A program made the translations under genes and the position numbers. A stretch of 63,356 bases of DNA, taken from assembly GCA_021802585.1 (NCBI GenBank), contig JAJZRQ010000007.1:1-63356 (forward strand), given 5' to 3'. Below, in pieces: positions 39,316 to 41,815 of this stretch. Within the stretch, counting starts at the first letter, position 1. The number at the start of each line of letters is the position of its first letter. Under the pieces are notes generated by a model, which saw nothing but the letters and a program-made list of their open reading frames with translations, was not told the DNA's origin and ran no database searches. The stretch comes from Chloroflexota bacterium. GTDB taxonomy: Bacteria > Chloroflexota > Limnocylindria > Limnocylindrales > CSP1-4.

Positions 39316-39474
39316 CGACGCAGCCGCGCAGGGTCCGAGCACCCAACGCCACGCTCCCCGCGCGCGCGCCGCCTCATCGGTCGCCCCGGCACCACGGACG
39401 CCGGCCGCGCGATCGCACACGGATCGAGGCGCGCCCGCACCGCGGGCCCGCCCAGGAAAGGCTTCCACCACACG

Positions 39475-39684
39475 ATGATGTCCAGGAACTCCCCGGCGCG
39501 GCGGCTCTTCGCGCCCCTCGCGGTGGCCGCGCGCTCCGCCGACGCCCGCCGGCTGCGCCGCCGCCACCACGCCGACGCGCGGCTCTACTGCGGCACGAAC
39601 GGCTGTCCCACCACCCTCCGGCTCGACGCCCGCACCGGCGTCGCCACCTGCCCGATCTGCGGGTTCCGCCGCCGGCTCTCCTGA
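39475..39684 (+). CDS. 69-aa Arg-rich zinc-ribbon protein
   Basis: AGGAAAGG upstream. Sequence MMSRNSPARRLF...RRLRRRHH...YCGTNGCPTTL...TCPICGFRRRLS has a Cx4C...CxxC motif and GC3-rich codons. Confidence 0.7.
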   Translation: MMSRNSPARRLFAPLAVAARSADARRLRRRHHADARLYCGTNGCPTTLRLDARTGVATCPICGFRRRLS

Positions 39685-39814
39685 CCCGGCGCCCGCGCAG
39701 GGAACCCGGCGTCGCCGCCGGGCGTGACACCGCCGCGCCGCGGCCGCCACGGCGCCCGGTGGATGGACCGTGGATAACCCGGCGCCGAACGGCGAATCTC
39801 GTGGACGGCGCCCC

Positions 39815-39843
39815 TTGCCCTCGGGCACCCGAACGGCGATCAT
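39815..39843 (+). promoter_or_regulatory. Putative promoter of the multi-hairpin RNA
   Basis: TTGCCC-N17-GATCAT, placing +1 near 39850, the first base before the closing stem. Confidence 0.55.
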
Positions 39844-39850
39844 CCCCTCA

Positions 39851-40112
39851 GCCCGAAGGGGCCGTGATGAACGGACCGTGGTGCCGCCGCAAGGCGGCCG
39901 GGTTCCACCGCAAGGGGAGCCGGGCCCTCCGTCAGGGGGGCCGCCCTTCCGCAAGGGAGGCGTCGCGATCCGCCGGTCGCACCGGGGCCGAAAGGCGCCG
40001 GACCCGCTCGCGAGAGCGGGAGGTGTTCCGCAAGGAGCGCCACAGCTGCCCGCAAGGGTGGCGAGTCCCTCGCAAGGGGGGCGCAGCGATCGGATCGGCG
40101 GTCCCTTCGGGC
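39851..40112 (+). ncRNA. Putative novel structured ncRNA with nine GNNA-loop hairpins inside a closing stem
   Basis: 39851-39864 pairs with 40099-40112. Loops: GCAA at 39889, 39910, 39951, 40030, 40052 and 40072; GTCA 39931; GAAA 39990; GCGA 40010. Many G-U pairs work only on the + strand. Confidence 0.75.
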
Positions 40113-40217
40113 GCTTTCGTGCCCTGCGCCAGGGGGCTCGCGCCGTCCCGGTTGTAGACTCGGCGGCGACGCCCTCGCGCCGCGCCCGGCGCGCCCGTTC
40201 CCGCCGTCGAGGAGCCC

Positions 40218-41063
40218 GTGTCCGACGCGCCCCCGCCCGCCGAGACCGCGATCCGCCTCGCCGGCCTGCGCTTCGCCTTCCCCGTCGACGGACGGAGGGT
40301 CGAGGTGCTCGGCGGCGTCGACCTCGCCGTCGAGCGCCGCTCGGTCGTCGCGCTCGTCGGGCCGAACGGATGCGGCAAGAGCACGCTCCTCCGCGTCGTC
40401 GCCGGGCTGCTCCGCGCCGCCGGCACCGTGGAGGTCGAGGGCCGCCGGGTCGCCGGCCCCGACCCGCGGGTCGGGCTCGTCTTCCAGGAGCCGCGGCTCC
40501 TCCCGTGGCGGACCGCCCTCGCCAACGTCGCGTTCCCGCTCGAGGTCGCCGGGCGGGGCCGCACCGAGCGGGAGGACCGGGCGCGCGAGCTCCTCGGGCT
40601 CGTCGGCCTCCGCGAGTGGGCCGGGGCGCGGCCGGCCGAGCTGTCGGGCGGGATGCGCCAGCGCCTCGCGATCGCGCGGGCCCTCGCCCTCGAGCCGTCG
40701 GTGCTCCTCCTCGACGAGCCGTTCAGCGCCCTCGACGCGCTCACGCGGGAGCGCTTCAACGTCGAGATCCTCCGCCTCTGGGAACGGATCGGCAGCACGA
40801 TCGTCCTCGTCACCCACAGCATCCCCGAGGCGATCTTCCTCGCCGACCGGGTGATCGTCCTGTCGCCGCGGCCGGCGACCGTGGCCGCCGACGTCCTCGT
40901 CGACCTGCCGCGGCCCCGTCGCCTCGCCGACCTCGACGCGGCCGTCGTGACGCGGACGGCGGCCGCGATCCGGGCCCACCTCGCGGGCGCGACCGACGAC
41001 GCCTATGCGGTCGCCGCCGGTGAGGTCGGGCGTCACGAGGCGCTCGAGGAGGCGCCGCGGTGA
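40218..41063 (+). CDS. NitT/TauT-type ABC ATPase, probable riboflavin uptake
   Basis: GPNGCGKST, VFQEPRLLPWRT, LSGGMRQR, LLLDEPFSALDA.TR, VTHSI.EA. Confidence 0.92.
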   Translation: MSDAPPPAETAIRLAGLRFAFPVDGRRVEVLGGVDLAVERRSVVALVGPNGCGKSTLLRVVAGLLRAAGTVEVEGRRVAGPDPRVGLVFQEPRLLPWRTALANVAFPLEVAGRGRTEREDRARELLGLVGLREWAGARPAELSGGMRQRLAIARALALEPSVLLLDEPFSALDALTRERFNVEILRLWERIGSTIVLVTHSIPEAIFLADRVIVLSPRPATVAADVLVDLPRPRRLADLDAAVVTRTAAAIRAHLAGATDDAYAVAAGEVGRHEALEEAPR

Positions 41064-41815
41064 CCGTGCTCCGGGGGCGGGTCCTGCCCCCGCTCATCGC
41101 GTTCGTCGGCTTCCTCGCGACGTGGCAGGCGATCGTCTGGATCGGCGGCTACCCGACGTTCATCCTGCCCGGCCCGCTCGTGGTCGCCGAGCGCTTCGTC
41201 CAGGCGTGGGCCGACGGGACGTTCTGGCCGCACCTCACGACGACGCTCGCCGAGATCGCCGTGGGGTTCACGGCGGGAGCGGCGGCGGCCCTCCCGACGG
41301 GGTATGTCCTCGCCCGCTCGCGGCTGGCGGACCGGGTCGTCTCCCCGTACCTCGTGGCCGCCCAGGCGGTGCCGATCCTCGCCCTCGCCCCGCTCATCGC
41401 CCTCTGGTTCGGGACCGGCCTCCTCGCCCGGGCGATCATCGTCGCCCTCGTCGTCTTCTTTCCGGTCGCGATCAGCGCGATGGTCGCCGTCCGCGGGATC
41501 GACCGCCGCCTCCTCGAGATGGCGCGGAGCTACCGGGTGACCCGCCGCCAGCGGATCTCCATGGTCGAGATCCCGGCGGCCCTTCCCGGGATCATCGGTG
41601 GCCTCCGGATCGGCATCACCCTCGCGGTCGTCGGGGCGATCGTCGCCGAGTGGACGGGGGGCGAGCACGGGCTCGGCGTCCTCATCAACCTGGCCCGGGG
41701 CAGCCTCTTCGACATCCCGCTCCTGTTCGCGACGCTCGTCCTCATCGCGATCGTCGGGATCGTCCTCTACGGGAGCGTCCTCCTCGTCGAGCGCTGGGTC
41801 GTCGCCCGCTCCTGA
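41060..41815 (+). CDS. NitT/TauT-type ABC permease (RibX-like)
   Basis: FILP.P..V, Q..PILALAPL...WFG.G, FFP, P.ALP.I..GL, GAIVAEW, GLG.LI. Confidence 0.9.
   Translation: MTVLRGRVLPPLIAFVGFLATWQAIVWIGGYPTFILPGPLVVAERFVQAWADGTFWPHLTTTLAEIAVGFTAGAAAALPTGYVLARSRLADRVVSPYLVAAQAVPILALAPLIALWFGTGLLARAIIVALVVFFPVAISAMVAVRGIDRRLLEMARSYRVTRRQRISMVEIPAALPGIIGGLRIGITLAVVGAIVAEWTGGEHGLGVLINLARGSLFDIPLLFATLVLIAIVGIVLYGSVLLVERWVVARS

Follow-up and report, generated by a model that had tools for sequence, protein, structure and literature searches.

Why should nine short hairpins with nearly identical tips stand side by side between a small zinc-ribbon-like open reading frame (ORF) and the genes of an ABC transporter? 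The question is raised by positions 39851 to 40112 (+ strand) of contig JAJZRQ010000007.1 (assembly GCA_021802585.1), of which the whole analysed stretch of 63,356 nucleotides is called the window. The source genome (G000; 2.65 Mb, 95.9% complete) belongs to genus g1 of family f1 in the class Limnocylindria (Chloroflexota). The original prediction described the hairpins as a candidate undescribed noncoding RNA (ncRNA). We find that they very probably form a real structured ncRNA gene and, with nearly the same confidence, that this RNA is the genus-specific expanded member, here called the giant, of a multi-copy small RNA (sRNA) family. The claim of novelty therefore stands; what the prediction did not foresee is that the RNA is no isolated element, the family having 1-6 copies per genome.

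The promoter hexamers and their spacer, the closing stem P1, the tail and the nine hairpins H1-H9 were all found where they had been predicted (Table 1), and the two-domain architecture was reproduced by the RNAfold minimum free energy structure of 39845-40125 (+). This structure has an energy of -186.2 kcal/mol, compared with a mean of -149.6 kcal/mol for shuffled sequences (z = -6.17; 0 of 200 as good, using 200 dinucleotide shuffles per strand). The reverse strand reaches -143.6 kcal/mol (z = -0.37), and 76 of its 200 shuffles fold as well. Because the + strand folds far below its shuffles and the reverse complement does not, the signal is strand-specific. The loops in G000 are GCAA, GUCA, GAAA or GCGA, with the tips CCGCAAGG (five times), UCGCAAGG, CCGUCAGG, CCGAAAGG and UCGCGAGA; as had been noted, a C-G pair closes every one of them, and all but one are GNRA. 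Hairpins capped by CGCAAG with at least four further pairs occur 24 times in the genome, five of them in a 184-nt stretch of this locus (39884-40067) and at most one at every other locus.

The giant is confined to its genus, where it is nearly always present. A search of G000 for dispersed copies, such as those of a repetitive extragenic palindrome (REP) or miniature inverted-repeat transposable element (MITE), found no second copy, and the giant is thus single-copy there. A full-length homologue was detected by BLAST in 23 of 24 sampled g1 species (71-90% identity) and in none of 16 genomes (1.0-1.4 Mb) of a neighbouring genus. A covariance model built from 24 genus sequences (R1) found exactly one copy in 37 of 41 other g1 species, including all 13 high-quality genomes; the four species with no match are 56-71% complete. 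Insertions or deletions of a single nucleotide separate the G000 sequence from relatives of 90% identity, and the long ORFs that overlap the RNA in this high-GC DNA are therefore ruled out as coding.

Covariation among these homologues demonstrates that the pairing is maintained. In a MAFFT alignment of 24 sequences (A1), RNAalifold identified 82 consensus pairs, 21 of them with compensatory double changes; 98.6% of the cells are paired, and 0 of 500 column shuffles reach the observed value on any of five measures. When the partners are slid by 1-3 columns, pairing falls to 37-53%. A second alignment (A3) of 34 distinct sequences gave 98.7% of cells paired, double changes in 23 pairs (155 cells), 0 of 500 shuffles as high and 37-54% paired in the slid controls; being fitted to the covariance model it is biased to the model structure, which is a point against it, though the MAFFT alignment agrees with it. 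One or more compensatory pairs were found in 10 of 12 helices, the exceptions being the closing stem and the near-invariant H1 and H4 stems (G-C/G-U changes only). A G-U pair in P1 is kept in all 34 sequences and numerous other G-U pairs occur. These data bear out the prediction of a + strand ncRNA under structural selection, whose strand is fixed by its G-U pairs. A less favoured variant of that prediction, a structured single-stranded DNA site, is not supported, as the fold is strand-specific and depends on G-U pairs.

The hairpin tips are conserved as well as the stems. Each of the 34 sequences retains the full set of nine hairpins, and mean column identity is highest in the hairpin loops (93.2%, with 28 of 38 columns invariant), followed by paired positions (89.3%) and junctions (76.1%). 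Of the 306 tips in these sequences, 267 carry C(GCAA)G. Thirteen H5 loops that appear as hexaloops can be read as tetraloops closed by G-C (12 as GCAA, one as GUGA), and counting them in this way GNRA is present in 294 of 306 tips. The GCAA loop is found in every sequence at H7 and H9 and in 33 of 34 at H8, and the two base pairs beneath the loop are conserved too (YCGCAAGG).

No described RNA family was found to match the locus. Rfam 15 (4227 models, among them 6S, Y RNA/YrlA, CsrB/Rsm, OLE, GOLLD, ROOL, raiA and riboswitches) gave no match at the gathering threshold anywhere in the window, with chance-level hits only in 39500-40500 (E >= 0.74), and five sibling loci gave no match at E <= 0.1. 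No tRNA or tmRNA gene is present in the window. This outcome is in keeping with the undescribed status that had been proposed.

The wider family emerged from weak matches of R1. Among 150 f1 genomes (49 genera), full-length matches were restricted to g1, and weak matches (21-38 bits) were found in 11 genomes of eight other genera, where they correspond to much smaller RNAs. Like the giant, these small relatives have a closing stem of the form GCCCGAAGGGGCC...GGTTCCTTCGGGC that keeps its G-U pairs, a tail reading GTTTyNNTGTCC and an upstream region laid out in the same way. From 16 of them a second covariance model (R2) was made, which detected the family in 143 of 150 f1 genomes and 48 of 49 genera, with 1-6 copies each. 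At the class level it was present in 43 of 44 f1 genomes and in 50 of 50 genomes of a second Limnocylindria family (f4), and it was not found in f2 (0/6), f3 (0/49) or f5 (0/1); f2 is genome-reduced and probably corresponds to Limnocylindraceae, judging by the sister relation described in part of PMC13212565. At the phylum level R2 matched 0 of 137 Chloroflexota genomes outside f1 and f4. Counted in the R2 results are five genomes marked as unpublished (G121, G175, G270, G251 and G245), whose sequences were not used.

The window RNA carries every hallmark of this family. Its closing strands at 39851-39864 and 40099-40112 have the family form GCCCGAAGGGGCC/GGTYCCTTCGGGC with the conserved G-U; the tail G(Y)TTyNNTG(y)CC follows immediately (GCTTTCGTGCCC at 40113-40124, beginning with GCTTTCGT at 40113-40120; family consensus GTTTc..TGtcC); and the promoter region has GATCAT at -13..-8, GTGGAC at -50 and GTGGAT at -81 and -92. 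R2 itself matches the 3' part of the RNA with 26.4 bits. The giant is thus homologous to the small sRNAs, most of them 81-87 nt long, in its closing stem, 3' tail and promoter region.

Table 1. Positions, in the window, of the parts of the RNA locus and of its neighbours
Feature	Position	Strand	Sequence or remark
Structured RNA core	39851-40112	+	P1 encloses two multibranch domains that hold the nine hairpins
Closing stem P1	39851-39864 with 40099-40112	+	GCCCGAAGGGGCCG pairs with CGGTCCCTTCGGGC; 14 bp
Domain 1	39872-39965	+	stem around hairpins H1-H4; alignment helices 2-6
H1-H4	39883-98, 39901-21, 39923-42, 39943-61	+	domain 1
Domain 2	39966-40097	+	long-range stem around H5-H9; alignment helices 7-12
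H5-H9	39982-40001, 40003-20, 40022-41, 40045-62, 40065-82	+	domain 2
3' tail, U-containing, conserved	40113-40125	+	GCUUUCGUGCCC; with P1, the putative 3' end or terminator tract
Putative sigma-70-type promoter	39815-39843	+	TTGCCC 39815-39820, 17-nt spacer, GATCAT 39838-39843
Promoter-proximal box	39798-39808	+	CTCGTGGACGG; GTGGAC starts at -50
Middle DnaA-box-like site	39770-39778 (-81)	+	GTGGATAAC (complement of TTATCCAC)
Distal DnaA-box-like site	39759-39764 (-92)	+	GTGGAT within GGTGGATGG
Zinc-ribbon-like ORF, small, basic	39472-39684	+	C-x4-C ... C-x2-C, then RRR; context only
Extended -10-like motif	40153-40160	+	TGTAGACT; between the RNA and the ABC operon
ABC ATPase	40218-41063	+	Pfam ABC_tran; context only
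Permease	41060-41815	+	Pfam BPD_transp_1; context only

Family members differ mainly in what lies between the two strands of the clamp formed by P1. The 180 non-redundant copies, gathered from 171 loci, are mostly 79-87 nt long (n=133), with smaller groups at 92-112 nt (n=13), 145-146 nt (n=6) and 180 nt (n=3), followed by the 23 g1 giants at 258-268 nt and one copy of 276 nt; a single entry of 316 nt is a regular-expression artefact that spans two tandem copies. Depending on the lineage, the interior ranges from 55 to 250 nt, and P1 and the tail are the only parts common to the whole family. The small members are imperfect rods with one or two hairpins and an apical cap RYUURY, mostly GCUUGC (107 of 133). 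CCGCAAGG is absent from all of them and caps one hairpin in some members of 101-180 nt, whereas the giants average 7.8 CGCAAG and 6.0 CCGCAAGG. The 276-nt member (L170) is closed by the stem GCCCGGAGGGGCC/GGUUCCUCCGGGC and has a quite different interior that is not built of GCAA hairpins; therefore, large expansions arose more than once.

This variability raises the strongest rival to a function for the nine hairpins, one to which we assign a low probability: they could be a lineage-specific expansion segment, stably capped against misfolding or decay, in an RNA of which only the clamp, tail and promoter matter and whose job is that of the small siblings. The restriction of family-wide conservation to P1 and the tail favours it, as does the exchange of CUUG-type caps in the small siblings for GCAA caps in the giants, both being classic extra-stable tetraloops. 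A weak 21-nt tandem period in domain 1 (39880-39961, 70-83% matches) likewise suggests simple tandem duplication, by which the giant may have grown. Against the rival, retention of nine hairpins in every sequence, loops more conserved than stems, compensated stems and conserved loop-proximal pairs (YCGCAAGG) exceed what is expected of a neutral insert. In addition, five g1 genomes have only 0-1 matches to the small-member model each, compared with 1-6 in other genera, which fits the idea that the giant may replace several one-hairpin siblings. The sibling in G000 lies at C40:24449-24540 (- strand; L079), is about 90 nt long, has the variant clamp stem GACCCGGAGGGGUC/GGUUCCUCCGGGUC and is preceded by three GTGGAC boxes and the -10 element TAGCGT.

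The giant also appears to have its own promoter. The ATCAT of its -10 element is nearly invariant across 24 species, and a consensus of the 180 upstream regions, anchored on the first base of the stem, reads TAnCGT at -13..-8 with TT at about -37. The support for a promoter comes from this conservation and not from consensus strength. Transcription would start about 7 nt past the -10 element, near 39850, at the 5' end of P1, and the 3' end would be formed by P1 with the U-containing tail. Taken together, an independently transcribed, highly structured RNA gene of about 265-275 nt, covering 39851-40112 (+) with a tail to about 40125, is in our judgement the best explanation; with the family membership, control and mode of action proposed for it here, the account as a whole has a probability somewhat above even. 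An outer helix between the upstream GTGGAYAAC and TGTCCRC in the tail was considered and rejected, as the -10 element puts the start at P1 and leaves the box untranscribed.

Farther upstream, sites resembling DnaA boxes occur at fixed positions. Among the 180 copies, GTGGAY starts at -54..-48 in 166, at -95..-86 in 148 and at -110..-97 in 100, while only two have it at -45..-1. All 23 giants have it both at -54..-48 and at -95..-80, and 11 of them also at -112..-96. In the window, the second of these ranges takes in both the site at -92 and that at -81. The distance from the proximal box to P1 is equal in the giant and its small siblings, and the layout of boxes and -10 element seen in the window is repeated in the six species of the genus that were compared. 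The commonest box words are TCGTGGATAAC and CTGTGGACAAC, and four of seven f4 copies have TGTGGAYAA boxes in the same places. We take TGTGGAYAA to be the complement of the classical DnaA box, TTATCCACA/TTGTCCACA. The densest YGTGGAY cluster of G000 (7 in 245 nt; C39:23354-23598) separates dnaA from dnaN, where oriC usually lies, and is probably oriC here. Because the fixed-position boxes match this cluster in the same genome, we propose that the family may be controlled through its GTGGAYAA sites by DnaA, or by another protein that reads the motif, a proposal whose chances we place a little short of even.

Two side observations concern these sites. The dnaA-dnaN spacer of G000 (loci L173 and L219) contains eight GTGGAC/GTCCAC sites, with dnaA ending at about 23316 and dnaN starting at about 23720. 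In one subtype of the f4 copies (L212-L214; genomes G200, G196 and G188) the GTGGAY boxes are replaced by repeated TGATATG and GGTGATATGG words, and the interior holds CUAGUGAUC on both strands.

Several points weigh against this account of expression and control. The promoter hexamers match the E. coli consensus at 8 of 12 positions, below the 9-of-12 limit of the scan, and a simple promoter and terminator scan calls neither in 39650-40300. Three of the seven f4 copies are without boxes and have a different upstream region. YGTGGAY is common in G000 (0.68 per kb), and there the boxes upstream of the RNA would not be significant by themselves; the proposed assignment to DnaA draws on box positions and on likeness to a presumed oriC. 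A search for sequencing runs with the locus listed 24, either of DNA or unlabelled, and none on record as RNA; the proposed transcript is deduced from sequence, as are its ends and abundance.

The boxes also lend some weight to a reading in which the selected feature is DNA, namely a datA-like cluster titrating DnaA, a REP or MITE repeat or a single-stranded DNA structure, with the RNA fold incidental. Each member has up to three such sites upstream at conserved positions, and tandem copies would add up to sizeable clusters. However, a conserved G-U pair becomes an A-C mismatch in the complement, good folding is limited to the + strand, compensatory changes keep the RNA pairing, the giant is single-copy and every copy has promoter-like elements, so that we regard a DNA feature as very unlikely. 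As for a REP or MITE repeat in particular, it was rejected on the single G000 copy, on the 1-6 family copies with promoter-like elements and on G-U pairs that are specific to RNA.

If the giant is an RNA gene, how could it work? It has hardly any single-stranded stretch fit for an antisense seed, and the clamp and the tips are its most constrained parts; it would most likely act by being bound. We suggest that it would act in trans through multivalent display of identical, very stable YCGCAAGG tips, which the clamp stem would hold together and to which one partner, most likely a protein, would bind in several copies. The giant would thereby gather into a single molecule a valency of hairpins that is distributed among several small siblings in other genera. 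Binding of a partner by eight or nine C(GCAA)G tips is a tentative idea that we hold to be possible rather than probable. The GCAA caps could be kept for thermodynamic stability alone, and since the siblings use an RYUURY cap, no single loop sequence serves the whole family as a recognition element. Moreover, CsrA (PF02599), Hfq and Ro/TROVE (PF05731) were not found in the 95.9%-complete genome, although the controls matched (controls of the CsrA search, and D. radiodurans for TROVE); the known sRNA-partner systems therefore offer no candidate partner.

Binding to the siblings themselves was also considered. Kissing between the GCAAG loops of the giant and the CUUGC loops of siblings, which would make the giant a sponge for sibling sRNAs, is unlikely, as tetraloops are too short and constrained. 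Besides, R2 matches nothing in G000 apart from the giant and its C40 sibling, and neither is of the CUUG type. The sequence GUGAUGA at 39864-39870 was considered as a box C/D or K-turn motif and rejected because it is not conserved in the second g1 subclade.

The array of GNRA loops could alternatively be directed at RNA. In one such reading the giant organises itself, its loops docking in the minor grooves of G-C-rich stems to give a compact particle or homo-oligomer. This is compatible with its set of eight or nine GNRA loops, with numerous tandem C-G pairs as potential helical receptors and with its two multibranch domains. There is precedent in GOLLD, ROOL and OLE, which are described as forming homo-oligomers (PMC12286853), and in RNAs of <200 nt that are described as able to make cages and filaments (bioRxiv 10.64898/2026.07.01.735769). 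Nevertheless, no recognisable receptor of the 11-nt or conserved internal-loop type was seen in the giant, and the junctions are its least conserved parts (76.1%) whereas tertiary folds usually fix them; we consider self-organisation improbable.

A second such idea comes from the ribosome, because the tip of 16S rRNA helix 27 (the '900 tetraloop') shares an 8-10-mer with most giant tips. In G000 this tip is GGCCGCAAGGCU; the 10-mer GCCGCAAGGC recurs unchanged in H1, and CCGCAAGG forms the majority of the other tips. The likeness extends over no more than a tetraloop with two or three adjoining G-C pairs, at a genomic G+C content of about 70%, and the rest of the hairpins differs. We speculate, as a distinct long shot, that replication status read by DnaA controls the clamp-stem RNAs and that the giant mimics the helix-27 GCAA hairpin eight- to nine-fold, titrating a 30S assembly or quality-control factor or docking on a tetraloop receptor of the immature 30S subunit; in a variant, self-assembly through GNRA loops would produce an RNA-only particle. 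If true, this would couple chromosome replication to ribosome biogenesis via an RNA decoy.

Comparison with known systems places the family near several of them and within none. It resembles the sibling sRNA families of streptococci (csRNAs under CiaR), Vibrio (Qrr under LuxO) and Listeria (LhrC under LisR) in having several, often tandem, paralogues with a repeated layout of regulator site and promoter and a shared structure at the 3' end. It differs from them in lacking a conserved single-stranded seed, a double-stranded clamp and capped hairpins being conserved instead, and also in a presumed regulator site that resembles a DnaA box, its single nine-hairpin member and the absence of Rfam homology. 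Like CsrB, RsmY and RsmZ, the giant shows one short motif on many hairpins of one transcript, as a multivalent decoy would, but the motif is C(GCAA)G and not a loop GGA. The literal CsrB analogy drawn at the outset thus fails, and a CsrB/Rsm-type sponge was rejected: GGA is not exposed in the loops, GG being found in stems only, and CsrA was not detected. Y RNAs, including YrlA-like ones, also have their ends paired in a conserved stem, a variable interior, a U-rich tail and paralogues, and eukaryotic Y RNAs are linked to replication initiation, which the DnaA-box promoters described here echo. The clamp-stem RNAs differ in having no tRNA-like domain, and with TROVE/Rsr not found in G000 and no match to the Rfam Y RNA models, this identity was rejected, as was that of an Hfq-dependent sRNA for want of a detectable Hfq. 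OLE, GOLLD, ROOL and raiA are likewise multibranch RNAs of >250 nt supported by covariation; the giant is smaller, consists almost only of simple capped hairpins and is confined to one genus, and its family to two families of one class.

The family and its unusual expanded member are new, in that no description was found in Rfam 15 or by full-text searches of the literature. Limnocylindria are abundant, uncultivated Chloroflexota of soil, sediment and freshwater, and a full-text search returned no paper that combines them with noncoding RNA. Searches for DnaA boxes together with sRNA promoters returned none relevant by title or abstract. In the main text of a comparative genomic study of the class, supplements not included, the terms sRNA, ncRNA and DnaA are absent (PMC13212565). 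The RNA family is near-universal in two Limnocylindria families and was not found in the genome-reduced sister family, and it offers an unusual case in which an 85-nt hairpin RNA has become a 265-nt multibranch RNA with its clamp stem and promoter retained. Should the boxes prove to be genuine DnaA sites, this would be a rare case in which an entire sRNA family is tied to the replication initiator. Independently of that reading, the family is ready for submission to Rfam, and to RNA structural biology the giant offers an appealing natural scaffold in its row of nine almost identical C(GCAA)G tips.

The genes around the giant suggested two further roles. In the genus, the gene order is zinc-ribbon ORF, RNA, ABC ATPase and permease, with a gene of the LCP family further upstream on the other strand. 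The transporter, first thought to be of the rib type, has its best NCBIfam matches among nitrate, sulfonate and taurine (NitT/TauT-type) systems, all of them under the equivalog cut-offs. The RNA has the same orientation as this operon, lies about 105 nt upstream of its ATPase gene, and keeps this arrangement in all g1 loci examined, as would be expected of a cis-acting 5' leader (a riboswitch or attenuator). Outside g1 the association dissolves: siblings with the same stem, tail and promoter stand in tandem or before unrelated genes. Synteny within one genus is weak evidence. The -10-like TGTAGACT between the RNA and the operon is conserved in the downstream flank of five of the six genus members compared and suggests that the transporter may have its own promoter. 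Furthermore, neither a ligand pocket nor an expression platform is evident in the fold of the giant, and the entire RNA lies within P1. A riboswitch or leader was accordingly rejected on the sibling contexts and on an ABC association confined to one genus, and we rate a cis-acting role as very improbable.

The zinc-ribbon ORF, directly upstream of the RNA in every genus locus compared, could encode a protein partner, with the RNA as its antitoxin, chaperone target or component of a shared ribonucleoprotein; arginine-rich peptides do bind GNRA-like loops, as lambda N binds boxB. The ORF is a real gene, single-copy in 127 of 150 f1 genomes and 39 of 49 genera, and it has no Pfam or NCBIfam family (best match IBR, E = 0.068). 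In five loci searched outside the genus, neither a sibling RNA (0/5; only noise at E > 0.5) nor the LCP gene nor the transporter lies beside it, and the flanks differ. It has no toxin-like family match, and the RNA has no ToxI-like repeat array. A ToxI-like type III antitoxin was rejected, given only the weak 21-nt period and neighbours that are an LCP gene, the zinc-ribbon ORF and ABC genes. The proposal of an RNA antitoxin for this protein thus found no support, and a partnership of any kind with it seems to us most unlikely. Sibling contexts, TGTAGACT and the distribution of the ORF together therefore disfavour both the antitoxin and the cis-leader readings.

Sibling copies elsewhere often stand two or three in tandem, commonly 3' of hflX and a conserved ORF that belongs to no described family. 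The ORF encodes about 190 aa with the motif ...LLLE.DPDGRF.HLE...LTLHPEGDGTLHGN... (L038-L047, for example L042:1998-2591, - strand); it has no family match, and no homologue was found in G000. The hflX-linked arrangement was not accepted as a sign of orthology with the giant, as hflX of G000 is on another contig with no sibling detected near it.

The distribution of the small members was also surveyed by an exact-pattern scan of 185,579 species genomes for the two stem strands 55-85 nt apart, which yielded 92 stretches. Among the 80 listed, 79 are from Chloroflexota metagenome-assembled genomes (MAGs), labelled Limnocylindrales or Limnocylindria, 'Chloroflexia', Chloroflexota, or Anaerolinea/Anaerolineaceae. 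One contig of a MAG labelled Verrucomicrobiia (L101) carries a Limnocylindria-type sRNA, probably as a result of a binning or labelling error.

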